Positions 6,703-63,797 of a stretch of DNA of 64,000 nucleotides are shown in pieces. The translations under genes were made by a program, and so were the position numbers. The stretch's first letter is position 1, and each line of letters opens with the position of its first letter. The DNA is from Candidatus Omnitrophota bacterium (GTDB taxonomy: Bacteria; Omnitrophota; Gorgyraeia; Gygaellales; Profunditerraquicolaceae): NCBI GenBank assembly GCA_003598025.1, contig QZKH01000003.1:439221-503220 (forward strand). Reading direction: 5' to 3'. A model generated the notes under the pieces. It saw only the letters and a program-made list of their open reading frames with translations. It searched no databases and was not told the origin of the DNA.

Positions 6703-6779
6703 TCCTGGCTATTCTCCTTTCTGCTACAGGCGTTTAATGCCAATCCCTGAAAATACCAGCAAAATTTTTGCATCCAAGG

Positions 6780-10257: not shown

Positions 10258-10303
10258 AAAACCGCCTCCGTTTATTGGCTATTTATTTTCTCCTTATATA
10301 ATA

Positions 10304-11035: not shown

Positions 11036-11113
11036 TTCTTTTAAGCCAGCTAACAAGACCGCTTTCGAGTTGGTTCTTATTTACCTTGATTTTATCAGGA
11101 TATTATAGTATTC

Positions 11114-21883: not shown

Positions 21884-21920
21884 CCAAATAAAAATCCCGT
21901 GCCTGTTCCCAGGCACGGGA
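21884..21920 (-). terminator. rho-independent terminator after the 21946..22626 gene
   Basis: In minus sense: CCCGTGCCTGGGAACAGGCACGGG followed by ATTTTTATTT. Confidence 0.6.
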
Positions 21921-21945
21921 TTGTTTGTTGCGGATTAATTACGGT

Positions 21946-29579: not shown

Positions 29580-30075
29580 CTTTAAATTTCCTTTTTAAGG
29601 CTTTAACTCTGTGCCCCATCTTTATCTTATCTATCATAGATGCATAATCAACAATCAGTTTACCGAAAAGATGGTCAATCTCATGCTGAAAGACGCATGC
29701 AAGCAAACCCTCGGCCCTGATTTCGACCGGCTTGCCATTCTCGTCAAGCCCGTTAACGACGATATTGTTTGCCCTCTTTACCTTCAGGCATATGCCCGGC
29801 ACGCTCAAACAGCCTTCCTCGATTGCCTGGGAACCGCTCCTCTTGGTGATTTTAGGGTTTATCACTTTATATAAACCACTACCTATATCGACTATTATCA
29901 TGGCGTTAGAGATGCCCACCTGTGGCGCAGCCAAACCTATACCCGAAGAAGAATACATGAGCCTTGCCATTAAGCTCAATATCTGGCGGTGCTCTTCAGT
30001 GACCTGAGTGACTGCCTTTGCCTTGTTTCGTAAAACAGGGTCAGGATAAGTTCTAATTTTTAATTCTATTGCCAT
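29530..30075 (-). CDS. def: peptide deformylase
   Basis: [16 protein letters not shown] and HEIDHL motifs. Confidence 0.9.
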
Positions 30076-30403
30076 TAATCACCTTTACTACCTTTGCTTT
30101 TAATTCTTTTGCCTTGCTGTCTTCAATAATTGTATAAGCAAGTATGATCACTTCATCACCGACACAGGCACCCCTGGCAGCAGGGCCGTTTAGGCATATA
30201 GTGCCGGAACCTGCTTTACCCTTGATAGCATAAGTTTCAAGCCGCATCCCTGAATTAAGGCTTAGGACCTCTACTTTCTCTCCTTCGATTATATCTGCGG
30301 CCTTCATAAGGTCAGCGTCAATAGTAATACTGCCTTCATAATAAAGGTTTGCCTCGGTGACTTTTACCCTGTGAATTTTAGATTTTAACATCGTGCGTAA
30401 CAT
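30053..30403 (-). CDS. panD: aspartate 1-decarboxylase
   Basis: [29 protein letters not shown]. The Gly-Ser self-cleavage site is in context. Confidence 0.9.
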
Positions 30404-30423
30404 TTTATACTCCTTGATTTATA

Positions 30424-31479
30424 CTATTTACTGATAAGGCCGTAAGCCTTACGCGCAATCAGCAGCTCTTCGTTTGTAGGTATCACCAGTACCTTGGGTT
30501 TCTTATTCATAAAACTAAATAATCCGCTAGTTACTAATTGGCGTATTCTTTTCTGGTTTTCGCCTATTCCCGCGGTAAAAACTAAAGCATCCAACCCGCC
30601 CATAGCCGCAATATATGCGCCTATATATTTCTTTATCCTGTAGACGAAGATATCTATCGCAAGCCTTGCCCGCTTATTTCCCTGCTTAGACTTCTTTTCC
30701 AGTAAACGCATATCATTACTGATACCCGAGATGCCTTTAAGCCCGCTCCGTTTATTAAGGAGGCTGTCTGCTTCATCAGCAGATATTTTCTTTAATTTCA
30801 TTATGTATGTCACCAGGGCCGGGTCAATATCCCCGCAGCGCGTGCCCATAAGCAATCCTTCCAGCGGAGTAAAACCCATACTCGTATCAATGGACCTGCC
30901 GTTTTTTATTGCAGTTATACTGCAACCGTTGCCAAGGTGGCATGTTATTATTTTTGATTTATTTATTGGTTTCTTCATGAGCCTGGCTGCCTCATGAGCG
31001 ACATATTCATGGCTTGTGCCGTGAAAACCGTATTTCCTGATACCGTATTTGCTGTAATATTCAAGCGGTAATCCGTATGTATAAGCATAATCCGGCAATG
31101 TCTGGTGAAAAGCCGTATCAAATACCGCTACCTGCTTTATGCCGGGCAGTAATTTCTTGCAGGACATTATCCCCAAAAGATTTGCCGGGTTATGTAGTGG
31201 GGCGATCGAGGCGCATTTCTTAATCTCTTTTGTTACTTTATCGCTGATCAAAACAGGCTTGTTAAAAACCTGGGCTCCGTGTACTACGCGATGGCCGACA
31301 ACATCCACACCGTCTATCTTGGCCAATATGAGCTTTAAGCCTTCATAATGATCCTTGATTTTTGAACCCTTCTCCCCTATATGCTCAATACCGCCTTTAA
31401 AAAGTACGGCTTCGCTGGGCATGTGGAAAAGCTTGTATTTAATTGAGGAGCTTCCGGAATTAATAACCAGTATCTTCAT
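30424..31479 (-). CDS. ackA: acetate/butyrate kinase family protein (acetate-kinase-like N-terminus)
   Basis: MKILVINSGSSSIKYKLF. Start trimmed to MKIL. 351 aa is short for AckA, so substrate specificity is uncertain. Confidence 0.8.
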   Translation of the reverse strand: MKILVINSGSSSIKYKLFHMPSEAVLFKGGIEHIGEKGSKIKDHYEGLKLILAKIDGVDVVGHRVVHGAQVFNKPVLISDKVTKEIKKCASIAPLHNPANLLGIMSCKKLLPGIKQVAVFDTAFHQTLPDYAYTYGLPLEYYSKYGIRKYGFHGTSHEYVAHEAARLMKKPINKSKIITCHLGNGCSITAIKNGRSIDTSMGFTPLEGLLMGTRCGDIDPALVTYIMKLKKISADEADSLLNKRSGLKGISGISNDMRLLEKKSKQGNKRARLAIDIFVYRIKKYIGAYIAAMGGLDALVFTAGIGENQKRIRQLVTSGLFSFMNKKPKVLVIPTNEELLIARKAYGLISK

Positions 31480-31481
31480 AA

Positions 31482-32411
31482 TTACTGTGCCCTTATAGCA
31501 GTTACGGCTACGCAATCAACAACATCTTCAACGGAACAGCCGCGTGATAAATCGCTGGCAGGTTTATTCAAGCCTAAAAGCAACGGGCCCAACGCCCGGG
31601 CCTTAGCCAGCCTTTGCACCAGTTTATAACTTATATTACCGGCTTCCAGGTTCGGAAAAATTAATACATTTGCCCTGCCGCCAAGCGGGCTTTGCGGATA
31701 TTTTATCTTTGCGACCTCAGGCACTATTGCCGCATCAACCTGTAATTCTCCGTCAACCAGTAAATTTGGAGCCATCTGCTTAAGATTGCTAAGCGCTTCG
31801 CTTATCTTATCAATCGATTTTGTCCTTGCCGAGCCTTTTGTCGAATAGCTGAGCAAAGCGATCCGTGGGGTAAGCCCGAGCACTTTCTGCGCCAGTTCCG
31901 AAGCTGCCAGGCAAATACAGGCTAATTGCCGAGAATTCGGTTCAGGTACTATTCCGCAATCTGCAAAAATAAAATTCCCGTTATCGCCATATACGCAATC
32001 CGGAACCGCCATAATAAAACAGCTGGAAACTATAGTAATGCGCTCGTTTACTCCCAGACATCTTATAGCCGCTCTTGCCACATCGGGTGTGGTGTGGCTT
32101 GCCCCGGCGACAAGCCCGTCAACCCTTCCTTCCGCGGTCATCATCGCGGCATAATAAAGAGTATCGTCAAAAAGCTTCTTTACGTCATCAAGCTTAAGGT
32201 CCTTAGACTTATAATCATTATAAAACTGCTGGATGTACTTTTCCCTGGTAGATGAATCCATTTTATCTTTTGAAAGGAGTAAGACATTGGCTATTTTTTC
32301 TTTCTCAATTATCTTTACCGCTTCAACGACCCTTTTATCATTGTATTCCGGCAAGACTATCGTCTTTAATTTCTGGCCGGCTTTGCTGCGAATCTTAGAA
32401 ATAGTATCCAT
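31482..32411 (-). CDS. pta: phosphate acetyl/butyryltransferase (short-form Pta/Ptb catalytic domain)
   Basis: 309 aa. The SRGCSVEDV C-terminal motif is typical of phosphotransacylases. Confidence 0.85.
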   Translation of the reverse strand: MDTISKIRSKAGQKLKTIVLPEYNDKRVVEAVKIIEKEKIANVLLLSKDKMDSSTREKYIQQFYNDYKSKDLKLDDVKKLFDDTLYYAAMMTAEGRVDGLVAGASHTTPDVARAAIRCLGVNERITIVSSCFIMAVPDCVYGDNGNFIFADCGIVPEPNSRQLACICLAASELAQKVLGLTPRIALLSYSTKGSARTKSIDKISEALSNLKQMAPNLLVDGELQVDAAIVPEVAKIKYPQSPLGGRANVLIFPNLEAGNISYKLVQRLAKARALGPLLLGLNKPASDLSRGCSVEDVVDCVAVTAIRAQ

Positions 32412-32412
32412 T

Positions 32413-33504
32413 TTAAATCCCCCTGAGAATTCTATTTAAATCAACATTATCTTTAATAAGCCTGACTACCGCATCGATCTTCTCTTTATCGCGCGGCCTT
32501 ATTTTTACCGTTAAATCATGTATCTTTGTTGCAACATCGTAAGTATCGGATTTGGCTAATAAAACAGTTATTTGCGCTTTATGGAGCAGGTTTAAAATCG
32601 GCTGCTCTGGCAATATCCCTCCCGATAATACCAAACCGCAGACTTTTAGCCTCTTCGTCTCTTGCCCGCGGAAACAACTGAGTGCTGTCATTATCAGGTC
32701 TTCCCTGTCACCGGGAGTGATCAATAGGCTGTCATCAACCAGGTATTTGATTGCGTCATGCGGCTCCATTGCCCCGACGATGACCGAAGAAACAGCAACT
32801 TCGGCATACTCCTTGCCGCAGAGTAATTCAAAATCAGTTTCTTCAAGGATCTGCTCAATTGAAGGCCTGGATAACATGGGGTTATAAGGTATCACCCCTA
32901 AAAGGTCTATTCCGCTGCGCTGTAAACCCTTCTTTACCAGACGGCTTATCTTATCTATTTTGCTCGGAATGACTTTATTGATTATAACACCCAGAACCTT
33001 GACTCCTTCTTTTTCAAAGAGCGCCTTATTTAAAAGTATCTCGTCAATAGGCCTGCCGATACCGCCGGAAGAAACAATTATTACCTTGCATCCCAGCAAT
33101 CTGGCAACCCGTGCATTTGAATGGTCAAAAACAGAACCTACCCCGGCATGCCCGGTGCCTTCAACGATTACCAGGTTCTGCTTTCTGGAAACGCGGCCGA
33201 ATGCATCTTTGATCTGTTTTGAGATTAAATTCCTGTTTGGGTTGGCTATATACTTCTCGGTGAAACCCTTCTCAACAGCGATAGGGCTCATATCCTTAAG
33301 CCCGCTTTTTATCCCGCAGACTACCTCTACCAGTAAAGAGTCTTCGTCGATCTTCAAGCCTTCTTCTTCAAGGTACCTTTGCCCGATGGGCTTGATAAAG
33401 CTTACCCTTTTAAGCTTATCTCTAAAATTAGAGATTAAGCCTAATGAAACGGTCGTCTTGCCGTCATTCTGCTTAGTCGCGGCAATAAATACCTTCTTCA
33501 TCAA
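32413..33504 (-). CDS. stand-alone Pta N-terminal-domain-like protein (BioD/CobQ-like P-loop plus DRTGG domain)
   Basis: ATKQNDGKTTVSLGL P-loop-like motif and a DRTGG-like C-terminal half. This resembles the N-terminal about 350 aa of long-form Pta. Confidence 0.65.
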   Translation of the reverse strand: MMKKVFIAATKQNDGKTTVSLGLISNFRDKLKRVSFIKPIGQRYLEEEGLKIDEDSLLVEVVCGIKSGLKDMSPIAVEKGFTEKYIANPNRNLISKQIKDAFGRVSRKQNLVIVEGTGHAGVGSVFDHSNARVARLLGCKVIIVSSGGIGRPIDEILLNKALFEKEGVKVLGVIINKVIPSKIDKISRLVKKGLQRSGIDLLGVIPYNPMLSRPSIEQILEETDFELLCGKEYAEVAVSSVIVGAMEPHDAIKYLVDDSLLITPGDREDLIMTALSCFRGQETKRLKVCGLVLSGGILPEQPILNLLHKAQITVLLAKSDTYDVATKIHDLTVKIRPRDKEKIDAVVRLIKDNVDLNRILRGI

Positions 33505-33821
33505 AGATTCTCTTCGATCCTCTTTTTTAACTCTGTCTTATTTAAAGCGCCGACTACCTGGTCTATGATCTTTCCGCCTTTGAGAAAAACCAAGGTGGGT
33601 ATAGACATTATTCCGTAATGCGTGGCTATACCGGAAGCCTCATCAACGTTAACTTTACCGATTTTCATCTTACCTTTATACTCTTTGGCCAGTTCATCAA
33701 CTATCGGGCCGACTAATTTACAAGGCCCGCACCACTCCGCCCAGAAATCAACAAGGACGGGCAAATCCGACTCTAAAACCTCTTTTTTAAATGTAGCTTC
33801 TGTAAAATGTAAAGTCGCCAT
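33501..33821 (-). CDS. trxA: thioredoxin
   Basis: WAEWCGPCK active site. 106 aa. Confidence 0.9.
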   Translation of the reverse strand: MATLHFTEATFKKEVLESDLPVLVDFWAEWCGPCKLVGPIVDELAKEYKGKMKIGKVNVDEASGIATHYGIMSIPTLVFLKGGKIIDQVVGALNKTELKKRIEENL

Positions 33822-33908
33822 AATTTATGTTTGTTTTATTAGGTTAATAATTTGGAGAGCGTGATTAATTTATCATAAATGCAGCCTGAATGCAAGTTTT
33901 TTATAGAT

Positions 33909-33984
33909 AGGTCCGTTTCTCCCACTGACCATAGAAGTGCCCCCATGGGGGGGCACTTCTATGAGGAGCTAGAGAAACGGACCT
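33909..33984. repeat. mosaic GC-rich palindromic element, copy A: AGGTCCGTTTCTC - CACTGACCATAG - AAGTGCCCCCATGGGGGGGCACTT - ...GAGAAACGGACCT
   Basis: Read directly. 12-bp outer arms and a 15-bp inner stem. It shares three modules with copy B at 39484..39560. Confidence 0.7.
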
Positions 33985-35575
33985 AGGGCTGGATGCTTCT
34001 GGAAAATAAACCCCCTGTTAAGGCATCTAAAGAAGCTGTTAATTCCTGTAACTTTAACTCCTTATCAAACCTCTTCTTCCTATCAGTGATCTGCAACTCG
34101 TCGATCTCTTTTTTAGTCCTTATCCTTTCAAAATACAGCTTTGTCACCTGGTCAAGAATGTCTTCCCTGAGCTCTACCATTAATCTCGACCTGGCATCGA
34201 TTGAGGTTTGAACGTCATTCCATATTATATCGCTCAAATCCCAGCTTAGGCCGATGTCCCAGTTTATGCTATCCCTTCCCCTCCTGAGTATATCATCATC
34301 TGTCTTCGTAGTTGAACCTGATTCCCAATGCCAAAGATCAGTCGCATCTCTATCTATGCCTATATCAAGCTTCGGTAAAAGTGCTTTTTTGGCGGCTTTC
34401 TTCCTCCATTCTGATATCTTTTCGCTGGAAACCTCCGCATAAACAATCGCCGCCTTATGCGCCTCTTGAATCGTTGGCTCGCTCTTTAGGTACTCCTGAA
34501 ACTGCGCATTATAAACGCCGGTTTCTGTTTTCTCTTTTAAATCGGCTCTAAATAACCCGTTGTCACAAGCAGCGTATATCAATCCGCTGTTGCTGACAGC
34601 TAAATCCTTAATACTCTTGGCTATAAGCCTAAGTGAAATCTCCTGCCACCTTTCTCCAATTAATTCGAATATTCCGGAATCAGAAGAAACATAAATACCA
34701 AAATCCTGGTTTATAAATATTTTACTTATATTCCTGCTCAGCAATCCAAAATCGCTTACTTTTTGCCAGTCACTCCCTTCGTTTACGCTGATATATACCC
34801 CGTTTGAGGTAGCCATGTATATTCTATCAAGACGCCCCGAGCCAAAAGCAATATTACGTATCTCAGGAGAAAAATAATTTTCGCTTTCCTTTGCCTGCTC
34901 TTCATCCTCCGAATCTTCTTTATGCTCTGAAGATATCACAAAAGAAAATACCTTAACCCAAAGATTATCCGCTAACTTCTTTCTAAATAAACTTCCTTTA
35001 GTAGCAACAAAGATGTATTGCGAATTAGCGGTGACGGAGACAATTTCCAGCTCACCTAATTCTCCCATCTCGCTGCTCCAGCTATTGCCTTTATTATCAC
35101 TTATAAGCAGCCCTGACCTAGTGCCAAGATATAATACGCCGCCTAAAGATCCTATACCGGTACAATCCCCTTTAAGATAATCACGGTTTTTATAGATCCT
35201 CGACCATTTATTACCATTACTTTGACTAAAAAACAAGCCGCTATCCGTAGCTGCAAAAAAAAATTTAGTATTATTTATCACTGAGCTGATTGAGTTTATT
35301 TTTTTACCCCTGCCTCTGAGAATAAGAGCCTTTTCCCAGGTTGAGCCCCCATCTTGCGACCTTAAGATATAGCCCTTGCGGCCTGCCAGGATAAGATCCG
35401 GATGTACCGGCTCAGTAAACACGCAAGTATACCCGGTTTCTCCCTGAGAAATATCTTTCCAGGCTGGCTCTGCTGCTCCCACACTGCCGCAAGCAGTTAT
35501 GAGAAGCAAAGCAACTAAAACAAAAGTTTTTTGCATCATCTTGCACCTCCTGATTAGATGACGCAAAAGGTACAT
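33983..35575 (-). CDS. exported BNR/Ycf48-like beta-propeller repeat protein with a C-terminal coiled-coil region
   Basis: Signal peptide with a lipobox-like LITACGS. Repeated SxDxGxTW-like motifs (SQDGGSTW, SDNKGNSW, VNEGSDWQ). Confidence 0.6.
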   Translation of the reverse strand: MYLLRHLIRRCKMMQKTFVLVALLLITACGSVGAAEPAWKDISQGETGYTCVFTEPVHPDLILAGRKGYILRSQDGGSTWEKALILRGRGKKINSISSVINNTKFFFAATDSGLFFSQSNGNKWSRIYKNRDYLKGDCTGIGSLGGVLYLGTRSGLLISDNKGNSWSSEMGELGELEIVSVTANSQYIFVATKGSLFRKKLADNLWVKVFSFVISSEHKEDSEDEEQAKESENYFSPEIRNIAFGSGRLDRIYMATSNGVYISVNEGSDWQKVSDFGLLSRNISKIFINQDFGIYVSSDSGIFELIGERWQEISLRLIAKSIKDLAVSNSGLIYAACDNGLFRADLKEKTETGVYNAQFQEYLKSEPTIQEAHKAAIVYAEVSSEKISEWRKKAAKKALLPKLDIGIDRDATDLWHWESGSTTKTDDDILRRGRDSINWDIGLSWDLSDIIWNDVQTSIDARSRLMVELREDILDQVTKLYFERIRTKKEIDELQITDRKKRFDKELKLQELTASLDALTGGLFSRSIQP

Positions 35576-35615
35576 GAATTCTAACGAAATTTTTTGTTGA
35601 AAATTGGCGGGGGCG

Positions 35616-35855
35616 CTACTTTATGCCACCCTCAGAATGGTCATTCCTGAACTCTTCTAAGAGTTGAATGGCTTGCTCAAACTGGCTGGATTCCACCTTT
35701 ATTCTGGCTGGGACTGCTAAAGGACGTATCTGCAGGAAATTTTCTCCCTCAATTATAAAATCAATGCCTTCTGATTCTAACAGCGATTTTATAAACGCTA
35801 CATGAAAAGGATTCATAGTGACATAGACCTCTTTATATAACTTATCCGCTTCCAT
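35616..35855 (-). CDS. DUF2007-like small putative signal-transducing protein
   Basis: 79 aa. Pattern recognition only. Confidence 0.45.
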   Translation of the reverse strand: MEADKLYKEVYVTMNPFHVAFIKSLLESEGIDFIIEGENFLQIRPLAVPARIKVESSQFEQAIQLLEEFRNDHSEGGIK

Positions 35856-35860
35856 AATAT

Positions 35861-38068
35861 TTATCCTCCTGGATATAAACTAAGAAGTTCGGTTTTTATC
35901 TCTTCGTAATAAGGTAAATCTACTTTCTTGTATATTTCCTGGGCCAGCCTTAAATGCTCCCTGGCTTTGTTTTTACGCCCCTGCTGTTTATAAAGCAGGC
36001 CCAAATCGTGGTAAGCTTCCGCAAGCTCAAGCTGAGCATCAATATCTTTGCAACTGGAAATGGCTAATTTAAAATACTTCTCCGCTTCTGATAAATTGTC
36101 CATATCGACATACAATTCCCCGATCATAGTATAGGCGCATGCTATATTAGGTTTATGGCCCTGCTCTGTATCTATCTCTAAACCCTTCTGATAATAATCC
36201 ATTGCTTTCAGGTATTCTTTCTGGAATTTGTAAACTTCCCCTATATTAAAATAATAATCGCTTAATTCATGTTTTAATTTCAATTCTTTGAATAAAACAA
36301 AACTTTTATCGTAGAATTCCTTTGCAGTTGCGTAATCATCTTTATTGGTGAATAATAGCCCGAGGTTAAAATAATCACAGGCAAGGTTATATTTATGCCT
36401 GTATATATTTATCCTCTGGCGGTTTATCTCCGAACTTTTTGTTAATAATTCAAGTGCCTTATCATTATCATCCTTATCCATATACCAAACAGCCAACTTC
36501 CCCAGGACATCGGCTTCGTTAAGCTTATCGCTATTCTTCCTGCTAAGGCTCAGGGCCTTATTATAGAATTCTAAAGCCTTGGGATAATCGCCGTGCATAT
36601 GGTAGATCCATCCTATGCCGGAATATGCGCAAGCAAGCCTGTTATTATCATTTTTCTTTTCGCTTTGCATGGCATATTGAAAATAATATTTTAGGGCAAG
36701 GTCTTTCTTCCCCATTCTGCGATAAGCATCTCCCAATAGCGGATATGCAGGCAGAAAACCCGGATCGCTGCTTACAATTTTACCGCATATATCAATTACC
36801 TTTTCGTTCTTACCAGACAGGTACAATTTGGAGGAATTGCTGTATTTAGCGTAAGTTGAAGGGTTAATACTTGGCAATATCCTGATTGCGCCGACGAAAA
36901 TTAAACAGCAAGCGCCGGTAACAGCCAATGCAGAAACTGCCTTTTTGCGCTTAAAGTTAGCTATCTGCGGAGTACTGGACCTAACTGCATTTTGCGCCCC
37001 AAAAAAATTGTAGCTTGGGTCGCCATATAACACATAACTAGCCCAAGAAATATTATCCAGGCCATATTCTTTTATTAATTTCATCCTTGCTAAACGTAAA
37101 CTTTTACCTAAACTGTTTCCTGATGTTAACCCGCCGTAAAATTCACGGGCAAATCTTAAGCTTTCATTGTCTTCAATCTTTCTTATCGCTCCGATATAAT
37201 GCCTCACCCCTGAAAACAAAAAGGCCGAGCCTAATGTGTATGCCCGTTCTTGGCATTCAATATCAGAAAGGTCATTCTGCATTTGCGCTGAATGACATGC
37301 ATTTGAAAAAACTAATGATGGCAAAGGTGAACTTTCACTTAAGGCGATAATATCATCAGCAGTAAATATATTATCGCTTAATACCCAGCCTGTATCACTT
37401 ACATCGCTGGATTTTGATTCGCAATGCCCCGCGAAATGCACTATATCGTAATCACGCAGGTTTCTCTTAACATACATTGAATCAATATTAGTTGATTTAA
37501 AATCAACGCCGATCCTGCTTCTATTTTTGTCAAATTGGTTCTTAATGAAGATTCCCTCTCTATATGCCGAATCAAGATCATTCGTGGGATTAGCCAGCAC
37601 AAGCATTTTGGGTTTTTGCGAAACACTTCTGTAGCGATTAAGTCCAAGCTCATTCTTGCTCCTTACTATCCTGCCCAGGTCAAATTTTAAGCTCAGGAAA
37701 TCCTGCCCATCATACAACAATTCCCAGGGAATATTTGTTAGTTCCTCATCCATCATTATAACCAGGTTACTAGAGGCAAGGCTTTTAAGTTTTTGTTTCA
37801 CTGGCTTGCTAAAAAGGTGGTCCCATAATAGCTGCCCGCTCTTTTTCAGGGAATTTGCCAGGGATAAAGGGTTGGATTTATCCTTATACCTTCTGCTTAA
37901 AATATCAGTGATATCGCGGCAAATACCAGTTATTTGCCTCTCGTCAAAATTTAGCTGTGTATAATGCCTTACTGTCTGAGCAAAATCATCCGCCTTAAAC
38001 AAACTCATCTTCAGGCGTAAGCTGTCTTTAAAAAGCTCCAATATCCATGCCCTTGAGCTATCTTCCAT
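35861..38068 (-). CDS. CHAT-domain (caspase-like) protease with a central TM helix and C-terminal TPR repeats
   Basis: The IVHFAGHC (His) and LVFSNACHS (Cys) catalytic dyad lie in the N-terminal half. The hydrophobic segment AVSALAVTGACCLIFVGAIRIL is at about residue 380. At least 7 TPR-like repeats fill the C-terminal half. Confidence 0.8.
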   Translation of the reverse strand: MEDSSRAWILELFKDSLRLKMSLFKADDFAQTVRHYTQLNFDERQITGICRDITDILSRRYKDKSNPLSLANSLKKSGQLLWDHLFSKPVKQKLKSLASSNLVIMMDEELTNIPWELLYDGQDFLSLKFDLGRIVRSKNELGLNRYRSVSQKPKMLVLANPTNDLDSAYREGIFIKNQFDKNRSRIGVDFKSTNIDSMYVKRNLRDYDIVHFAGHCESKSSDVSDTGWVLSDNIFTADDIIALSESSPLPSLVFSNACHSAQMQNDLSDIECQERAYTLGSAFLFSGVRHYIGAIRKIEDNESLRFAREFYGGLTSGNSLGKSLRLARMKLIKEYGLDNISWASYVLYGDPSYNFFGAQNAVRSSTPQIANFKRKKAVSALAVTGACCLIFVGAIRILPSINPSTYAKYSNSSKLYLSGKNEKVIDICGKIVSSDPGFLPAYPLLGDAYRRMGKKDLALKYYFQYAMQSEKKNDNNRLACAYSGIGWIYHMHGDYPKALEFYNKALSLSRKNSDKLNEADVLGKLAVWYMDKDDNDKALELLTKSSEINRQRINIYRHKYNLACDYFNLGLLFTNKDDYATAKEFYDKSFVLFKELKLKHELSDYYFNIGEVYKFQKEYLKAMDYYQKGLEIDTEQGHKPNIACAYTMIGELYVDMDNLSEAEKYFKLAISSCKDIDAQLELAEAYHDLGLLYKQQGRKNKAREHLRLAQEIYKKVDLPYYEEIKTELLSLYPGG

Positions 38069-38782
38069 TTATACAAATTGTTTGATATCCAAAACTATCG
38101 TTGCCATTGCCTTTTCATCAGAAGTGATCTCCAGCCTATATTTTCCTAACATAACCTCCTCAAAAACAACTACCCCGGAGCTACCGATATAAGACTCAAG
38201 CGTAAGGTCATCTTTTAAAAGGGTGACTCTTAGCTCCTTAACAAGTTTTTGGGAATCCTTGTCCTTCATGGTTACCTGGACCTGAAACTTATTGTTCCTT
38301 TTATTATCGATTTTAAGCTCAACCCTGAGCCTGTCAAAATCTTTTAGTATTATTATTTCGTCCCTGAAGTTATTTATCTTACGGCTCCTTAATACAGACG
38401 CGGAGACCAGTTCCTGTCCCAGAAGGATATCCCCAGAGCTATGTAATAACTCTATGATCTGGCCGCGAAAGGCCAAGGCTATATCCATCATTAAATCCTT
38501 CAGCCCTGCGCTGGCCATGCTTTTTACTCCTTCCAGGAGTGCTGCCGGGGCATCCTTAGCCTCTGGATTTCTGAGCTTGTTCAACGTTACCAGCAATTCC
38601 AGGCAATCACTGCAATTTAAAACATGCGCCTTTAACTTCTCTTTATCATCATGGCTAAGCTTATTATCCAGAAAACAGGCCAAAGATTCTTCATCAGGAT
38701 GAGCGCTATCCTGGACTAGCTTAATTTTCTTCTTCCAATTCCTGAATATATGCTTAATAAAAAGCTCATTTTTTGCCTGCAT
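38069..38782 (-). CDS. anti-sigma factor (zf-HC2 type)
   Basis: AHVLNCSDCLELL H-x3-C-x2-C motif near the N-terminus. It sits directly downstream of the ECF sigma gene. Confidence 0.6.
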   Translation of the reverse strand: MQAKNELFIKHIFRNWKKKIKLVQDSAHPDEESLACFLDNKLSHDDKEKLKAHVLNCSDCLELLVTLNKLRNPEAKDAPAALLEGVKSMASAGLKDLMMDIALAFRGQIIELLHSSGDILLGQELVSASVLRSRKINNFRDEIIILKDFDRLRVELKIDNKRNNKFQVQVTMKDKDSQKLVKELRVTLLKDDLTLESYIGSSGVVVFEEVMLGKYRLEITSDEKAMATIVLDIKQFV

Positions 38783-38817
38783 GCGTAGTCCTTCCCATTC
38801 TATTAGACGAGATTAAT

Positions 38818-39423
38818 TCAACTTTCTAACGCAAATCCTTTAGTTTTAAAGCATTCTTTGAGCCTCTGCACGATCCTTGACTTTCTCATATCCACTGCCC
38901 CGCGGGATATGCTAAGCAACTGCCTCACCTCATCTAAGGCCAACCCCTTATTGATATTCAGCTCGATGAATAGTTTGTCATCCAAGTCAAGCAGCTCAAT
39001 ACAATCTTCTAAAGTAGATAGTTTTTCCTGTAATAAGGCTTCGTCATCTGCCAGTGGCTTATTATCGCTGATTATTTCTTTTATACTAAGCCCTGGATCA
39101 ACCTCCTCATCAATAGATATGTAGTCCTTCTGCCTTCTCAGATAATCGATTGTAAAGTTCGCCACGACAGGTTTAAGCCAGCTGGATAATGAGCATCCGT
39201 TTTTGGCTTTAAAGCTCTTTAATTTCTTAAAATTGTCTTTTCTTAAGAAGATGAATATTTCCTGAAAAATATCTCCGGAAATATCTCTATTTGGATGGTA
39301 GTTTTTGATACTTAGAACACCGTGGATGTAACTATAGATAAAGCGGGAATATTTCTCTATGAACTGAACCCAGGCAAGTTTTTCATCATTTATACATCTC
39401 TGGACAAACTCCAGATCGTTCAT
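38818..39423 (-). CDS. ECF-type RNA polymerase sigma factor (sigma-70 family)
   Basis: Region 2 (FQEIFIFL..K) and region 4 (LDEVRQLLSISRGAVDMRKSRIVQRLKE). Start set at ATG 39423 (MNDLEF). The track's N-terminal extension depends on a TTG start. A TATAAT box lies about 8 nt upstream. Confidence 0.75.
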   Translation of the reverse strand: MNDLEFVQRCINDEKLAWVQFIEKYSRFIYSYIHGVLSIKNYHPNRDISGDIFQEIFIFLRKDNFKKLKSFKAKNGCSLSSWLKPVVANFTIDYLRRQKDYISIDEEVDPGLSIKEIISDNKPLADDEALLQEKLSTLEDCIELLDLDDKLFIELNINKGLALDEVRQLLSISRGAVDMRKSRIVQRLKECFKTKGFALES

Positions 39424-39478
39424 GTAGTTAATTATACTACAACCTAGCCAAAAACACAATAACCCTATTCCCTCATAC

Positions 39479-39560
39479 AAAAAAGAGCTGCCCCCGCTTT
39501 TGGGGGCAGCTCTATGGTCAGTGACAGAAACGGTCCGTGGTCAGCAGGAGAAACGGACCT
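39479..39560 (-). terminator. mosaic palindromic element, copy B, which also acts as the intrinsic terminator of hppA
   Basis: In minus sense, directly after the hppA stop: ...GAGCTGCCCCCAAAAGCGGGGGCAGCTC followed by TTTTTT. It shares CACTGACCATAG (inverted), GAGAAACGGACCT and a G5/C5 hairpin with copy A. Confidence 0.7.
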
Positions 39561-39563
39561 GGA

Positions 39564-41666
39564 TTATTTGAATAAGGTGTTTGTCATTACAAATGACGCA
39601 AAAACGATTGATACCATTGACATAAGCTTAATCAGAATGTTTAAGCTTGGGCCGGAGGTGTCTTTGAAAGGATCGCCCACCGTATCGCCTACTACCCCTG
39701 CTTTATGGGCAAATGAACCTTTTCCACCGTGATGCCCTTCTTCTATGTATTTCTTGGCATTATCCCATGCTCCGCCTGAATTTGCCATCATGACTGCAAG
39801 CACAAACCCGGAAATTAACGCACCAGTCAACAACCCTGCTTCAGCTTCTATGCCGATAAGTAAACCTACGACTATTGGCGCGGCTATTGCCAATAAAGAA
39901 GGTGCTATCATTTCCTTCTGCGCTGCTGAAGTGGCAATGGTTACACAGCGTGCGTAATCAGGCTTTGCCGTACCTTCCATGATACCTTTGATCTCCTTAA
40001 ACTGCCTTCTTACTTCAACTACAATCTTACCTGCTGCACGACCTACTGCGCGCATGGTCATAGCGCAGAACAAAAATGGCAGCATTCCGCCGATAAACAA
40101 ACCCACCAAAACTGCAGGGTTCATTAAGCTCAAATTGAGTTCTTTGCCAAAAAGCATTATCTGCTCACGGTATGCGGCAATCAAAGCAAGCGCGGTCAGC
40201 GCTGCCGAACCTATAGCAAAACCTTTTCCAGTAGCTGCAGTAGTATTGCCAAGTTGATCAAGCGCATCGGTCCTCTTCCTTACTTCCGGAGGAAGGTGCG
40301 ACATCTCGGCATTACCGCCGGCATTATCTGCAACAGGGCCGTATGCATCGGTCGCCAAAGTAATGCCTAAAGTTGAAAGCATGCCTACAGCGGATATACC
40401 TACGCCGTAAAGCCCGGCATTGAAATTTGTTGCGCCTCCAGATAAAAAGAAACTTGCAAGTATAGCTGCGCCAACAACGATCACCGGTATTGCGGTTGAC
40501 ATCATACCTACAGCTAAACCTCCTATAATAACGGTCGCAGGCCCGGTTAAGGCTGCATCTGCAATTGAGCGCGTAGGCTTAAAACTATTCGATGTATAAT
40601 ACTCGGTAGCTAATCCAATCAACACTCCGGCAACCAGCCCCGATATTACTGCCCAGTAAACACCCATAAACTCTGCGCCAAGTGTACTTTTCACAAGGAA
40701 ATAGGATATTATCGCAACTAAAAATGCGCTGGCAAATACGCCTTTCCTTAAAGCAGCAAGTAAAACGTTTTGTTTTGCTTCTTCGCTGCTTCTTACAAAA
40801 AAAGTACCTATAATAGAACAAATGACTCCGACAGCAGCCATAACCATAGGCACAGTAACTCCGGCAATACCCAAACCAGCCGCAACACCCAAAGAAGAGG
40901 TTGCAACAATCGAGCCTACATATGACTCATACAAATCTGCTCCCATTCCTGCCACATCGCCTACGTTATCACCGACATTATCTGCGATTACCGCAGGATT
41001 ACGCGGGTCATCCTCAGGTATGCCTGCTTCGACTTTACCTACCAGGTCTGCTCCGACATCGGCTGCCTTAGTAAATATACCTCCTCCTACCCTGGCAAAC
41101 AAAGCCTGAGAACTTGCGCCCATACCGAAACAAAGCATTGTTGAAGTTATAGCAGTTATCTTATCCATGTTTGCCGGAAGCGCATGCCCTGAATAATACC
41201 AATCAAGGAAATAATACCAGATACTTAAATCTAATAAACCTAGACCGACTACTACCATTCCCATGACCGTCCCGCTTGAAAAAGCAACACGTAAACCGGA
41301 ATTCAAGCTTTTCATGGCTGCGGCTGTAGTACGGTTGGAAGCCTGAGTCGCTATCTTCATCCCGAAAAACCCGGATAACCCTGAGAATAAACCTCCGGTT
41401 AAAAACGCAAAAGGGACAAAGATTACCAATTGATTCTTAGAAGCCAAAAAGAGCAATATGAAGAATACGACGATAAAATATGCGGCAACTCCGATATATT
41501 GCCTTTTTAAGTAAGCATCTGCTCCGACCCTTACTGCGCGGGCAATCTCTTTCATCGTATCATTACCCTGGTCCTTACGAAGAATAGAAAAAGCCAGATA
41601 TGCGGCAAACATAAGAGCCACAATAGAGCCTACAGGCGCCAATATTAACAAATTAAATCCTGCCAT
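39564..41666 (-). CDS. hppA: membrane-bound K+-stimulated H+/Na+-translocating pyrophosphatase
   Basis: 700 aa. [19 protein letters not shown] and DNVGDNVGD pyrophosphatase motifs. Confidence 0.9.
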
Positions 41667-41754
41667 CTAACTCCTCCTTAATGTGATTTATATTGTTTGG
41701 GGGTTGTTTTGGTACTTAAGTGCGTTATAGTAACACAAAATCCGGTAAAGTCAA

Positions 41755-42018
41755 CTATTTTAGCTTATCTTTGTCATGAACCACTTCTGCCTCAATATCA
41801 ATAATGTCCTTACTCTTACTCCCGGCAGCGCCATAGCCTGATGAAGAAACAAATTTCTTAGCAAGCAATACTGAATTAAGAATAAACAACGTTACTAATA
41901 TTAACTCTGCCGCCAGCCAATAAAAGAAACCAAGGAATATCCACCCGAAAAGAAAATTAAAAAATATAAGAAACGGTAGAAAACATCCTGTACGGCTGAA
42001 AAATACGATACTTTTCAT
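41755..42018 (-). CDS. small membrane protein, hypothetical
   Basis: 87 aa with two TM helices. Confidence 0.35.
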   Translation of the reverse strand: MKSIVFFSRTGCFLPFLIFFNFLFGWIFLGFFYWLAAELILVTLFILNSVLLAKKFVSSSGYGAAGSKSKDIIDIEAEVVHDKDKLK

Positions 42019-42028
42019 TTCTTATAGT

Positions 42029-42553
42029 TTACTTCCTCTGGTAAATACCGACAAGCACTGCCTGCGCAAGTATATGCCCTTTCATTTCTCTTTCCAAACT
42101 TTTTTTATCAAGGTTATCAACGCCTATAACCTTATCTAAAGCAAAAAGCTTAAAAAAATACCTGTGCGCACCGCTTGGAGGGCACGGGCCATTATATCGA
42201 AGCTCACCGGAATCATTCGGCCCCTGCCTGCCCGGAGAACTATTTTCCTCTATGCTTTCTCTTGGCGGCACATCATACAAAACCCAATGCACCCATTCTC
42301 CGGATGGCGCGTCGGGGTCATCAACTATCAAAGCTAAACTTTTTGTTCCGCCAGGCAAAGCATCGATCATCAATGCCGGGTTAACGTCCTCTCCTTGACA
42401 GGTGAATTTTACAGGTATCTTACCGTTATTTACAAAATCAGGGCTGGTTATTTTCATATCAGAAGCTCCTTCCTGCGCTTCAGTGCCATTAAACAAAAAG
42501 ATAATAGCCAACAATAAGCAAATAAGCAGCTTTCCCATATATATATTTCTCAT
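42029..42553 (-). CDS. YbhB/YbcL-family PEBP (Raf-kinase-inhibitor-like) protein, secreted
   Basis: GAHRYFFKLFALD PEBP signature. Start trimmed to MRNIY to clear the upstream gene. Confidence 0.8.
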   Translation of the reverse strand: MRNIYMGKLLICLLLAIIFLFNGTEAQEGASDMKITSPDFVNNGKIPVKFTCQGEDVNPALMIDALPGGTKSLALIVDDPDAPSGEWVHWVLYDVPPRESIEENSSPGRQGPNDSGELRYNGPCPPSGAHRYFFKLFALDKVIGVDNLDKKSLEREMKGHILAQAVLVGIYQRK

Positions 42554-42557
42554 ATAG

Positions 42558-44408
42558 CTAAGGCTTCTCTCTCCTGCGCTCTGAAAGCAAAACAACATTC
42601 TTGAGGTCTTCCTTGTTGGGGGCTTCCAGCCACTTCTTATCGAAATCTATATTCTGTGTAATCTGCGCGATAGCCGCCAGAGATTTCAAATGAAGATTCC
42701 GCTCATCAGCAGAACCAACTAATACAAATACTATATGTACCAGGTTATCCATCGGGAAAATCACTCCCGCTCTGGAACGTGCCAGTACTATCTTAAAAAT
42801 ATTCTTTCCTTCGATTATTACGTGCGGTATAGCTAAGCCTTTTCTTAAAACAGTGCTTGTCTCATTTTCTCTCTGAATAAATTTCTCATAAAGCTCTCTT
42901 TCAGGCACCCCCAACTCACCGCTAAGCTTCTTTGAAACCTCTGCAAAAAAATCATTCATTTCAATTGGCTTATCAAAATCTAAGACATCCGACTGATCAA
43001 CCAACTTATGAAATTTATCTTCAACTATTTCATCCCTCTGGACTACGATATCCTTAAGTTCAATAAGCAGGTTATCCGAAGACAAGACCTTATCTTTTGC
43101 CACCATCCTCTCCAGCATATAAATCAAGGCTGAATCCTTACTGACTTTTTTATAAACATATAACCTATACCAGGCATAACCGCCGAGCAGAAAAACTACT
43201 GTAAATAAGATTATAGGCCTGCCCATTTCCACAAGAAGGAACAACCCCGAAAGTATCCCGGCAATCTGAAGATAAGGATAAAATGGGGTTATGAATTTTG
43301 GCCTATAGCTCAATATTTTGCTCTCTCTGAACAATATCAAAGTAAGGTTAGCGAAGACATAAAGCAAGATCAGTATGCTTGAGGCTACCTTTACTAGAAA
43401 ATCGAGTTTAAGAAATAATATTACCCCGACCATAAATATCCCGGTAAATACTACCGATATGTAAGGCGTCTTAAACCTGCTCATCCTCTGAAAAACATTC
43501 GGTAGCAGCCTGTCCCTGCTCATGCTCAATGGGTATCTGGAAGCAGTCATTATCCCGGAATTGGCAGTAGAAATAAAAGCCAGAAAAGCCCCGATGCTTA
43601 TTATAATTTTAAGTACGTTCCCGCCGAAAACACCTGCTGCCTCAGAGATCGGGATCAATGTCCCTCTTAAAACATCGGCATCCATCACGCCTACAGTAAC
43701 AAAAATAACCGAAGAATAAATTAATGAGGTGACTGCCAAAGAAAGCAACATCCCTAATGGAAGATTACGGCTCGGGTTTCGAGTCTCTTCAGCCAAAGCT
43801 GCGACCTTAGTTAAGCCTCCGTAAGAAATAAAAACAAAACTTGCGGTTTTGATAACCGCACCTAAACCTTTATCCATAAATGGCGTAAAATTTAGAAGGC
43901 TTACCCGCGTTAAACCCCATACGGAAAAAGTTACAAGAGAAATCAGTAATCCGGTAACTAGTATTACCTGGGTCCGTCCGGCTTCTTTAATCCCGATAAG
44001 ATTTACAAAAACAAAAAATGCGCAACAAACCAAAGCTATGTTGGTAACAGAAAGACTTGTCAGCAGAACCAGATAAGCTCCCATACCGATTAAGGCAAAG
44101 GCTCCTTTAAGGCTTAAAGAAAACCAAGTGCTAAAACCTGCTATCGTGCCTAAGAGCGGGCCAAATCCTCTCATGATATAAAAATAATCCCCTCCCGCCT
44201 TTGGCATGGCGGTAGTAAGTTCCGCCATGCTGAAAAGCGCAGGCAAACAAAAAATACCAGCAATAATATAGGACAGGATAACTGCTGGACCGGCTTTATC
44301 AAATGCCAAACCGGGTAATATAAACAATCCCGAGCTTATCATTGCTCCGGTAGCAACACAAAAAACATCAAGAAGCCCTAAATCTTTTTTTAAATAGCTT
44401 TTCTTCAT
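42558..44408 (-). CDS. APC-family amino-acid permease fused to a C-terminal PTS-EIIA(Ntr)-like regulatory domain
   Basis: 12 TM helices with an APC-type N-terminus (LGLLDVFCVATGAMISSGLF). The C-terminal roughly 150 aa have an EIIA-2-like fold signature with IPH. Start set at MKKSYL. Confidence 0.7.
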   Translation of the reverse strand: MKKSYLKKDLGLLDVFCVATGAMISSGLFILPGLAFDKAGPAVILSYIIAGIFCLPALFSMAELTTAMPKAGGDYFYIMRGFGPLLGTIAGFSTWFSLSLKGAFALIGMGAYLVLLTSLSVTNIALVCCAFFVFVNLIGIKEAGRTQVILVTGLLISLVTFSVWGLTRVSLLNFTPFMDKGLGAVIKTASFVFISYGGLTKVAALAEETRNPSRNLPLGMLLSLAVTSLIYSSVIFVTVGVMDADVLRGTLIPISEAAGVFGGNVLKIIISIGAFLAFISTANSGIMTASRYPLSMSRDRLLPNVFQRMSRFKTPYISVVFTGIFMVGVILFLKLDFLVKVASSILILLYVFANLTLILFRESKILSYRPKFITPFYPYLQIAGILSGLFLLVEMGRPIILFTVVFLLGGYAWYRLYVYKKVSKDSALIYMLERMVAKDKVLSSDNLLIELKDIVVQRDEIVEDKFHKLVDQSDVLDFDKPIEMNDFFAEVSKKLSGELGVPERELYEKFIQRENETSTVLRKGLAIPHVIIEGKNIFKIVLARSRAGVIFPMDNLVHIVFVLVGSADERNLHLKSLAAIAQITQNIDFDKKWLEAPNKEDLKNVVLLSERRREKP

Positions 44409-44409
44409 C

Positions 44410-44889
44410 CTAATAAATCCTGCTCCCGGGCAATATAACCCATTCTTTAAAAAGCTCAAGGCACTCTTCATACAAGAAACTACTTACGATATCTATCTTG
44501 CTTGAACCCAACCGCTTCATCGATAGGCTGCTGATTTTTAATTCGTTAAATCCCACTTTAATTGCGTCTTTAATACCGGTCCCAAAAACTATTTTGTTTA
44601 TCCTGGCCCAGTGTATTGCGCTAAAACACATCGGACAAGGCTCGGTAGTAGAATAAATTACGCAACCTTTTAAATCATAGCTGCCTATTTTAGACGAAGC
44701 CTCTCTAATTGCGTTTATCTCGGCATGGCAAGTGGCATCATTCTTTAAAACAGTATTATTAGCTGCTGCCAGGACCATTTTGCCTTTCACTATACAGGCT
44801 CCGAAAGGCCCGCCGTTTAAACTCTTCAAATTCTTTTTTGCTTCGGCGATTGCGATTCTCATGTATCTCTTATCCGGATTATATCTCAT
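44410..44889 (-). CDS. CDA-fold nucleoside/tRNA adenosine deaminase
   Basis: CHAEINAI and PCPMC zinc-binding motifs. Confidence 0.8.
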   Translation of the reverse strand: MRYNPDKRYMRIAIAEAKKNLKSLNGGPFGACIVKGKMVLAAANNTVLKNDATCHAEINAIREASSKIGSYDLKGCVIYSTTEPCPMCFSAIHWARINKIVFGTGIKDAIKVGFNELKISSLSMKRLGSSKIDIVSSFLYEECLELFKEWVILPGSRIY

Positions 44890-45644
44890 TCTTTAATAAA
44901 CCTCTTGGGGTCTTTAGCGCATGCCAGCAATAACGGCAATTCAAGATTATGCGCAAGCAACAATTTTTCATCCCTCAATATCTCCAATACCTGACCCACC
45001 TTAATGATCTGCCCCTTATCTATTAAAGCTACCCGGCTGCAGACCTCAAGGACCAGGTCTAGGTCATGAGTTGCGATTATCTTAGTGAGAGCAAAATTCT
45101 TAAGCATATTCATAAGGTCCCTTCTGTGCTTGGGGTCCAGGTTACTGGATGGCTCATCTAAAACAAGTATTTTTGGGGACATGGAAAGAACTGTTGCGAT
45201 TGAAATCCTTTTCTTCTCTCCATAGCTTAAGTGGTGCGAGACCCTTTGGAGAGCATCCTTCATATCTACTTTGCTCAAGGCTGAATCAACTGTATCCCTT
45301 ACATCTTCCTTTTTCATACCCATATTTAAAGGCCCGAAGGCCACATCCTCATACACCGTCGGCATAAACAGCTGGCTATCCGGATCCTGGAAAACAAAAC
45401 CAACGGTTTTCCTTATTTCTCTGAGATTAAGGTCATCCATAGCCAAGCCATTGATTCTCATATGCCCCTTTCCTCTGATTATCCCGTTAAAATGCAGGAG
45501 AAGCGTAGATTTACCGGCGCCATTCGGCCCGATGATACCCAATGTTTCTCCTTCAAAAATATCCAGATTTATGCCCCTTAGCGCCTGGTGCCCATCGGGA
45601 TATTTAAAACTTAAATCTTTGATTTCAATTGCTTTAGAAGGCAT
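44886..45644 (-). CDS. cbiO: ECF transporter ATPase (cobalt/nickel ABC ATP-binding protein)
   Basis: GPNGAGKST Walker A, LSYGEKKR signature, and DEP Walker B. Confidence 0.85.
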   Translation of the reverse strand: MPSKAIEIKDLSFKYPDGHQALRGINLDIFEGETLGIIGPNGAGKSTLLLHFNGIIRGKGHMRINGLAMDDLNLREIRKTVGFVFQDPDSQLFMPTVYEDVAFGPLNMGMKKEDVRDTVDSALSKVDMKDALQRVSHHLSYGEKKRISIATVLSMSPKILVLDEPSSNLDPKHRRDLMNMLKNFALTKIIATHDLDLVLEVCSRVALIDKGQIIKVGQVLEILRDEKLLLAHNLELPLLLACAKDPKRFIKE

Positions 45645-50197: not shown

Positions 50198-51871
<1,674 letters not shown>

Positions 51872-63757: not shown

Positions 63758-63797
63758 TAAAAAAAAGGCAATTCTTAATTTAATAAGAATTGCCTTG
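63758..63797 (-). terminator. rho-independent terminator of a minus-strand gene beyond the window end
   Basis: In minus sense: AAGGCAATTCTTATTAAATTAAGAATTGCCTT followed by TTTTTTTT. Confidence 0.6.

Follow-up and report, generated by a model that had tools for sequence, protein, structure and literature searches.

This study concerns two palindromic elements, here called A and B, in a 64,000-nucleotide (nt) stretch of DNA from a Candidatus Omnitrophota bacterium (contig QZKH01000003.1, positions 439,221 to 503,220; hereafter the window, to whose numbering all positions refer unless a relative is named). The elements occupy the gaps at either end of a five-gene block situated between hppA, encoding a membrane pyrophosphatase, and the thioredoxin gene trxA. 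Our analysis indicates, with a probability that we put at roughly 0.78, that A and B are members of a lineage-specific family of Omnitrophota repeats that resembles repetitive extragenic palindromic (REP) sequences and their hairpin-forming doublets (REPINs), and that is tied to a domesticated HUH-type Y1 transposase similar to the tyrosine transposases that are associated with REPs (RAYTs). A preliminary description of the window had considered either a REP-like or miniature inverted-repeat transposable element (MITE)-like family or, alternatively, a cassette whose insertion between trxA and hppA the elements would delimit. The former proposal gains support from the dispersal of homologous palindromes in related metagenome-assembled genomes (MAGs), from the recovery of A by a model built from relatives only (E = 2e-10), and from the presence of arms of this family on both sides of a Y1 gene in four relatives.

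Element A (33908..33985) lies between the stop codon of the BNR gene, the last of the block, and the trxA promoter, and it comprises two inverted 36-nt units that together form a REPIN-like doublet of 76-78 nt. Taken as 78 nt, it is a near-perfect palindrome with arms of 37 nt that are 84% complementary around a 4-nt spacer; its right end overlaps the BNR stop codon (33983-33985) by 2 nt. The layout is an outer stem of 13 base pairs (bp), an internal loop of 11 x 11 nt, an inner stem of 12 bp, and a tetraloop. On the plus strand, the left half of the outer stem, AGGTCCGTTTCTC (33909..33921), pairs with the right half, GAGAAACGGACCT (33972..33984), while the inner hairpin (33933..33960) is formed by AGAAGTGCCCCC, the loop ATGG, and GGGGGCACTTCT. 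The internal loop is asymmetric: its left side, CCACTGACCAT (33922..33932, plus strand), which is part of a module CACTGACCATAG, faces ATGAGGAGCTA (33961-33971), and this asymmetry sets the orientation of the element. The calculated folding energy was -32.5 kcal/mol for single-stranded DNA (ssDNA; z = -9.8) and -59.5 kcal/mol for RNA. On the gene strand, the hairpin is followed by A-rich sequence instead of a T-tract.

Comparison with relatives places A within a structured family. A aligned without gaps to the 76-nt family (alignment A1), differing on both sides at 9 of the 25 stem pairs with pairing kept, and 96.7% of the cells were paired overall. None of 500 shuffles reached the observed values, and shifting the partner columns reduced pairing to 38-64%. 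A covariance model built from relatives only (R2) found A as its top match in the window, over the full length of the model (1-76), at 50.5 bits and E = 1.9e-10.

The family is dispersed. The nearest relatives that could be retrieved have hppA 74-88% identical to that of the window; fetched loci are designated L001 and so on. A genome scan with a pattern taken from the termini of the relatives' elements, GGGACGTCTTT N{37,67} AAAGACGTCCC, returned 11 loci, among them nine further doublets on eight contigs of four Omnitrophota MAGs (four contigs in CAZKSS01, two in JAUYDQ01, one with two copies in JAUYCX01, and one in JAQUME01). The other loci were the L001 site again and two gammaproteobacterial look-alikes with only the termini in common. 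Covariance searches added copies at L019:110-203 and L010:8955-9037, the latter a variant with GGGAACGTTTCTA modules, as well as a solo doublet (L027:6767-6842) and a solo single arm (L030:192-250) in genomes that also have the transposase gene described below. Apart from these model-found copies, the family is present on at least four contigs of one MAG and on two of another. The homologous palindromes span 73-85 nt, and the asymmetric internal loop reveals that both orientations are represented. Most start 1-6 nt past a stop codon, and for several the next start codon is only 8-19 nt away from their end; A, B, and most of the relatives' copies lie near a stop codon between same-strand genes, which is the location expected of REP sequences.

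Several of these copies merit individual description. Those in L016, L017, L023, L024, and L010 are tightly placed between same-strand genes, with the ribosome-binding site of the next gene directly at the end of the element. In L021, two 85-nt copies (4904-4988 and 6731-6815) lie in the same reading frame inside an open reading frame (ORF) of more than 2657 amino acids (aa) that spans the 8-kb locus; the DNA surrounding them is unrelated, and they look like independent in-frame insertions in the gene. The gammaproteobacterial look-alikes (L018 5657-5744 and L025 2998-3084) are palindromes, each about 88 nt in length, that end in the 11-nt termini of the Omnitrophota family, GGGACGTCTTT and AAAGACGTCCC; their interiors are similar to each other, contain GTAG, and differ from that family. 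Their termini may reflect chance, convergence on a common recognition site, or distant relatedness.

Element B (39484..39560) begins 3 nt past the hppA stop codon and differs from A in its architecture. It contains a complete left arm of 59 nt (39502..39560, minus strand) that reads, in gene-strand order, AGGTCCGTTTCTC, CTGCTGACCA, CGGACCGTTTCTG, TCACTGACCATA, and GAGCTGCCCCC, i.e., two direct modules and one inverted module. This arm is joined through a 6-nt loop, AAAAGC on the gene strand (39496..39501, minus strand), to an 11-nt stub (39485..39495, minus strand) that reads GGGGGCAGCTC on the gene strand. Of the opposite, right arm, only the first module remains. A is a doublet that forms a hairpin, as REPINs do, whereas B has this organization only in part (full arm plus 11-nt stub). 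The stub pairs with 39502-39512 to give a 12-bp stem with nine G-C pairs, and the hairpin is followed directly by a T6 tract (39479..39484, minus strand) within a T-rich tail, TTTTTGTATG, as is typical of intrinsic terminators. The hairpin and T-tract made up the top terminator-like site in a scan of positions 30000-45000, and we predict that they terminate hppA transcription. On this point, as on the lack of a T-tract at A, our results agree with the preliminary description.

The two elements lie where the preliminary description had placed them and have exact modules in common. The window holds just three exact copies of the 13-mer GAGAAACGGACCT, at 33909-33921 (minus strand), at 33972-33984 (plus strand), and at 39548-39560, the outer end of B; a degenerate fourth copy, ACAGAAACGGTCC, lies within B at 39524-39536. 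Shuffling predicts 0.82 matches to the 13-mer with two mismatches allowed, and the exact copies are far above chance. The 12-nt module CACTGACCATAG occurs exactly twice, at 33923-33934 (plus strand) and 39512-39523 (minus strand), and the left arm of A is 86% complementary to the inner unit of B over 36 nt. Judged by the asymmetric spacer CACTGACCATAG, the two elements face opposite ways relative to the upstream gene. The apparent rearrangement and inversion of modules between the elements arises because A is a doublet of a 36-nt unit, while B consists of a 59-nt arm and a stub of the opposite arm. We assign B to the family on account of the exact modules that it has in common with A, its position, and its co-linearity over 59 nt with the transposase-flanking arms of relatives.

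No third copy was found in the 64 kb, either by k-mer sharing or by two covariance models, as had also been reported in the preliminary description. k-mer matches near 51022 and 14988 fall within coding sequence and were dismissed as chance, and weak covariance-model matches at 63765-63796 and 21893-21922 proved to be plain hairpins without the family modules. Rfam 15 gave nothing at A or B, whether at the gathering threshold (whole window) or at E<=1 (33700-39800). A and B carry derived states relative to all relatives, namely GGGAC to GGTCC or GGACC, AATCGG to TGACCA, and GTGTCCCC to GTGCCCCC or CTGCCCCC. This is a genome-specific variant, as expected for such families.

The site immediately downstream of hppA connects the family to a transposase. 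In L001 and L012, this site is occupied by a 76-nt palindrome with the architecture of A, consisting of AGGGACGTCTTT, 6 nt, AATCGGAAGGGTGTCCCC, a loop, GGGGACACCCTTTGCTTT, 6 nt, and AAAGACGTCCCT. L013 has a version with two tandem left modules, L010 a simple terminator only, and L014 the L001-type element in flipped orientation. The opposite orientation at this orthologous site (L014 12107-12182 vs. L001 5337-5412) is evident from the internal loop (AATCGGAAG vs. CTTTGCTTT side) and implies either inversion in place or independent insertion at one site. In L002, the palindrome is split by an antisense gene for a 160-aa Y1_Tnp protein, leaving inverted 64-nt arms that are 560 nt apart and 73% complementary. 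Three further genomes (L027/L028, L029, and L030), which we found through homologues of the L002 protein, again carry a gene for a 160-aa Y1 protein in the interval from hppA to the sigma factor gene, flanked by the same arms. In each of the four genomes, a single RAYT-like gene at this site is flanked by inverted units. Many other Y1 homologues lie on contigs of about 1 kb; such elements break assemblies.

The arms flanking this gene are 59 nt long and comprise two direct AGGGACnnTTCTT modules with nnnnnAATCGA between them, then nnnnnAATCGGA, and then an inverted GAAGTGTCCC (alignment A3). The left arm of B matches the arms of L002, L027, L029, and L030 in both length and module order, and where B has its 6-nt loop these relatives have the segment of about 560 nt with the RAYT-like gene. 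Searched alone, B was matched more weakly than A by the covariance models, at E = 0.0015 (R1) and E = 0.037 (R2).

The Y1 proteins passed the Pfam Y1_Tnp model (PF01797) and show the motifs HIH and YIEYNP. Against the NCBIfam model NF047646, 'REP-associated tyrosine transposase' (cut-off 80), the L002 gene scored 79.5 bits and a second, distinct gene in the window, discussed below, 78.5 bits; against the IS200 model (cut-off 55), the corresponding scores were 28.5 and 16.8 bits. Among the four gene-bearing genomes, pairwise identities were 72-82% for the Y1 transposase, 75-89% for hppA, 52-73% for the sigma factor, and 43-59% for the CHAT protein. In a tree built from hppA identities, with L012 left out, the gene-bearing genomes were the outgroup L030, the L027/L029 clade, and L002 within the crown group. 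Since the Y1 gene is more conserved than the sigma factor and CHAT genes and occurs on both sides of the deepest hppA split, it appears to have been inherited vertically at this site under purifying selection, as is typical of RAYTs that keep to one extragenic space across genomes. The parsimonious reading is that the gene is ancestral at the hppA site and has been repeatedly lost, including in the lineage of the window.

The following course of events would account for these observations. By analogy with the E. coli RAYT, whose action on REPs is established in vitro (cited in PMC3733652 and PMC5581495), the Y1/HUH enzyme would recognize arm hairpins in ssDNA and copy doublets to new sites. 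The lineage of the window would have lost the Y1 gene and most of the right arm at the hppA site, leaving B as a remnant, and the inner hairpin of B with its T6 tract would now terminate hppA upstream of the promoter of the sigma operon. A would be a dispersed doublet of the same genome-specific variant, which the Y1 enzyme, acting on the single-stranded hairpin form, most likely copied into the variable BNR-trxA gap, and may now serve as a very stable 3' hairpin of the block transcript.

Several observations weigh against this interpretation. Copies in the source genome were seen at two loci, both within the window, and a pattern exact for A and B, AGGTCCGTTTCTCNNNNTGACCA, gave no matches in a scan of genome_contigs; its four matches in metagenome_contigs all lie in coding DNA without a palindrome and were attributed to chance. 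At A, neither a target-site duplication nor an empty site is definable. The only Y1 gene within the window has other flanks, so no cognate enzyme was identified there for either element. A sequence-only model of the 59-nt arm placed B and both A arms at E of about 0.2, at ranks 2-5 behind a chance match; this model alone cannot prove homology of B to the RAYT-flanking arms. What ties B to those arms is therefore its position, its length, and the order of its modules; with the structured model, E was only 0.037. The elements also depart from classical REPs, since the termini AGGTCCGTTTCTC contain neither a GTAG nor a CGTC tag, and an arm folded by itself gives -2.0 kcal/mol for A and -0.1 kcal/mol for B, with z about 0. 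The termini of the relatives, AGGGACGTCTTT, do contain CGTC, but inside the paired stem, and assignment of the window variant to the CGTC-tag class of REPs was rejected.

The folding of single arms differs among genomes. REPs are units of 20-40 nt that are themselves imperfect palindromes; the arms in the window do not behave in this way and neither do those of L001, whereas the arms of the RAYT-bearing relatives fold at -6.1 to -11.9 kcal/mol (z of -2.6 to -6.9). The loss of single-arm folding in the window and L001 fits a relaxed constraint from enzyme recognition after loss of the gene, with the doublet palindrome persisting. A corresponding decay of REPINs after RAYT loss has been reported (10.1101/2021.07.10.451892).

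The cassette interpretation holds that A and B are boundary repeats, either similar to phage attachment (att) sites or to terminal inverted repeats (TIRs), of five genes inserted between trxA and hppA. The gene order, all on the minus strand, is hppA (39564..41666; protein 100% identical to RJP29125.1), B, an extracytoplasmic function (ECF) sigma factor gene (38818-39423, start revised), an anti-sigma gene of the zf-HC2 type (38069-38782), CHAT-TPR (35861-38068), DUF2007 (35616-35855), BNR/YCF48-like (33983-35575), A, trxA, DRTGG, pta, and ackA, with the block itself spanning 33983..39423. Pfam confirmed the calls for BNR/YCF48-like, DUF2007, CHAT-TPR, zf-HC2, Sigma70_r2, H+-PPase, and thioredoxin. 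Elements with exact modules in common do lie in the gaps at both ends, and the GC content of the block is slightly below that of hppA. However, the block sits between hppA and trxA in every relative in which both ends are visible, and nine fetched relatives, whose hppA is 74-87% identical, keep the sigma factor, anti-sigma, and CHAT genes after hppA, with trxA or BNR in view in six distinct contexts. In L001, L002, L012, and L013, the order is complete: hppA, sigma, anti-sigma, and CHAT are followed by a small gene that varies among genomes, BNR, a gap that varies likewise, and then trxA, DRTGG, pta, and ackA. As far as their contigs reach, L010 and L014 keep the order to BNR or just past it, and L027/L028, L029, and L030 have hppA, sigma, anti-sigma, and CHAT. 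The exception is L009, which has another context downstream of hppA, without trxA. No fetched relative, L009 included, has trxA adjacent to hppA, the arrangement for which the preliminary description had proposed to check genomes without the block.

The proteins of the block are likewise full-length orthologues, at 31-57% identity overall to those of the window (sigma 46-57%, anti-sigma 31-47%, CHAT 45-57%, and BNR 39-44%). Because the order is kept and the proteins align over their full length, we regard the block as old and syntenic. Pfam detected no integrase or recombinase domain within it, most relatives have an element or RAYT gene at the hppA end only and none at the BNR end, and the repeats are palindromes, not direct att-like repeats, of a family that also occurs at unrelated loci. 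The hallmarks of a genomic island, i.e., absence from relatives, an internal recombinase, and terminal direct repeats, were not found. The preliminary description had named scattered copies at unrelated positions, together with synteny of the block in relatives, as the outcome that speaks against a cassette, and this is essentially what we observed. We therefore consider a cassette extremely improbable; that five genes are bracketed reflects repeats having settled at two operon boundaries, not an insertion event involving the block.

Two further alternatives concern the nature of the elements themselves. A and B might be functional RNA or DNA hairpins of the host (terminators, stabilizers of mRNA 3' ends, or protein-binding sites) that are kept by selection without transposition, their likeness arising from a shared binding factor or gene conversion. 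The retention of an element next to the 3' end of hppA in genomes whose hppA is 86-87% identical, the canonical hairpin and T-tract of B, the covariation of stem pairs, and the location of copies 1-6 nt past stop codons are all consistent with such roles. We nevertheless judge this account improbable, given that the family occurs at many unrelated loci in both orientations, even in frame in a giant ORF, that it flanks a Y1 transposase gene in four genomes, that A has no T-tract, and that L014 and L001 have the hppA-site element in opposite orientations. Host function and transposition are also compatible, REPs being known as co-opted terminators and stabilizers (PMC3733652). Alternatively, the elements might be miniature derivatives, of the MITE or palindrome-associated transposable element (PATE) type, of a self-mobile IS200/IS605 insertion sequence (IS) in place of a domesticated REPIN/RAYT system. 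The nested protein has the Pfam Y1_Tnp domain and scores just under the NCBIfam RAYT cut-off, many of its homologues lie on very short contigs as would be expected of a multi-copy IS, and the other Y1 gene of L001 and L013 has direct-repeat hairpin ends like the left and right ends (LE/RE) of such elements. Yet in four divergent genomes the hppA-site gene keeps to one locus and is better conserved than the genes beside it, it scores far better against the RAYT than the IS200 model, its arms are inverted rather than direct, and it has no TnpB partner, which makes an origin from IS200/IS605 very unlikely. A family tied to a domesticated RAYT-like transposase remains the interpretation that we prefer.

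The boundaries of the block have their own expression signals, which were read from the sequence. A -10 box, TATAAT (39431..39436, minus strand), lies within TAGTATAAT, 7 nt before the ATG of the sigma factor gene, and boxes of the same type are present in L001, L002, L010, L012, L013, and L014, at 7-9 nt before the sigma ATG in the relatives. Because this box is conserved, the block is likely to have its own promoter downstream of B. The distance between the -10 box and the ATG suggests a leaderless or nearly leaderless sigma mRNA. The start of the sigma ORF at TTG 39480 is probably wrong: the relatives' proteins begin MxDLEFV, which corresponds to the ATG at 39423 and a protein of 201 aa. 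At the other end of the block, a putative trxA promoter (TTGCAT, 17 nt, TGnTAAATT; 33867..33895, minus strand) starts 13 nt past A and is kept in L001, L002, L012, and L013.

The block contains one variable position and adjoins another. The DUF2007 gene is specific to the lineage of the window, without a counterpart in any fetched relative, and every genome has its own small ORFs in the CHAT-BNR slot, making it a second variable position in an otherwise conserved block. The gap between BNR and trxA, where A is situated, also varies among relatives. It holds a PilZ gene and about 480 nt of non-coding DNA in L002, helix-turn-helix (HTH) and F5/8-type-C genes in L012, DUF6788 and NTP_transf_8 genes in L014, and another Y1 gene, for a protein of 234-237 aa, in L001 and L013. 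The non-coding stretch of L002 (19080-19560, from PilZ to trxA) is GC-rich and has several hairpins with no convincing Rfam match. The longer Y1 gene (L001 11768-12545 and L013 17447-18215; 95% identical between the two) lies exactly at the site of A and is flanked by 25-nt direct repeats, CCTTATCGCACCGCGTAGGTGCGTA, each with a small hairpin and then GTAG, in an IS200/IS605-like layout.

The window itself encodes a RAYT-like Y1 transposase of 196 aa elsewhere (10328-10918, minus strand). Its database entry, RJP29097.1, says no more than 'transposase', and it is 40% identical to the RAYT at the hppA site of L002. On either side of the gene, at 10303-10316 and 11023-11036, lie the two halves of a perfect inverted repeat of 14 nt, AGGGGACGTTCCCC / GGGGAACGTCCCCT. 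The gene is related to the system, but neither family model found its AGGGGACGTTCCCC flanks, and we do not claim it as the cognate enzyme of A and B. Elsewhere in the window, a fluoride riboswitch (RF01734; 60358-60420, minus strand; 57.9 bits, E = 1.9e-13) was the sole Rfam match at the gathering threshold.

These results lead us to a broader proposal, which we advance tentatively and at somewhat short of even odds. Omnitrophota may possess an old, vertically inherited system of the REPIN/RAYT type, whose transposase has its home between hppA and the ECF sigma operon and whose modular arms differ from GTAG REPs. Its doublets would be wedged near stop codons and co-opted as terminators or insulators, with occasional in-frame insertions in giant genes, and the window would represent the state after loss of the transposase. 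If true, a deep-branching and uncultivated phylum would join those to which the model of a domesticated transposase with its repeat population applies, and the recognition architecture would be new. More generally, the data document a REPIN/RAYT-like or TIRtron-like system in Omnitrophota with a conserved home locus. Three states of this locus are seen, one with the gene in place, one with a doublet alone, and one with a stub that appears to have decayed and to have been reused as a terminator; the series offers a small natural illustration of repeat erosion and co-option after transposase loss. For the window, the tempting but wrong reading of the ECF-sigma/CHAT/BNR block as a mobile cassette is removed and the two odd GC-rich palindromes become ordinary repeat biology; for annotation, elements of this family can mislead predictions of island boundaries.

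Comparison with known systems helps to place the family. B resembles intrinsic terminators in that, directly downstream of hppA, a GC-rich stem of 12 bp precedes a T-run, but its hairpin is made of repeat modules and preceded by 48 nt of repeat sequence, and A has no T-tract. Similarities with IS200/IS605 elements and PATEs include the Y1/HUH-fold transposase, hairpin ends, and a likely action on ssDNA. Unlike IS200/IS605 elements with their direct LE/RE, the arms at the hppA site are inverted, the IS200 score is far under the cut-off, the locus is fixed and vertically inherited, and TnpB is absent.

Closer parallels are provided by TIRtrons, in which tyrosine transposase genes (TIRYT) have long TIRs that form moderately abundant families, as Di Nocera et al. 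2013 (PMC3733652) describe. The Omnitrophota system, too, has a RAYT-like gene in long inverted repeats (64-nt arms in L002) that are not GTAG REPs, and gene-free TIR dimers in moderate numbers. A Y1 gene within long inverted repeats that themselves form a repeat family was found in relatives only. The inner motif of the relatives, GGGGACAC, fits the consensus GGGGWSAS, which that text gives for some TIRs only, whereas GGGGGCAC (A) and GGGGGCAG (B) in the window fall outside it. The TIRYT hosts named there are Proteobacteria, Acidobacteria, and others, and we draw the likeness from the description rather than from TIR sequences.

A further close counterpart is the REPIN-RAYT system, in which REP doublets that form hairpins are associated with a tyrosine transposase (Bertels & Rainey 2011, PMC3116915; PMC5581495, 10.1101/2021.07.10.451892). 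In a limited search, we met no mention of Omnitrophota in the literature on such systems. The Omnitrophota family differs in having no GTAG tag, in its modular 59-nt arms of two direct modules and one inverted, in the non-palindromic single arms of the window, in a Y1 protein that scores 0.5-1.5 bits under the NCBIfam RAYT cut-off, and in copy numbers that are so far small (at least four per fragmentary MAG, compared to hundreds). Other features correspond. In A, two inverted units fold into one long hairpin (about 76 nt), and the family is dispersed and mainly intergenic, with its own sequence variant in each genome, comparable to a 'master sequence'. Relatives have a single Y1/HUH gene within inverted units, vertically inherited in a constant extragenic space, and, as in REPIN-RAYT systems, the elements decay where this gene is lost.

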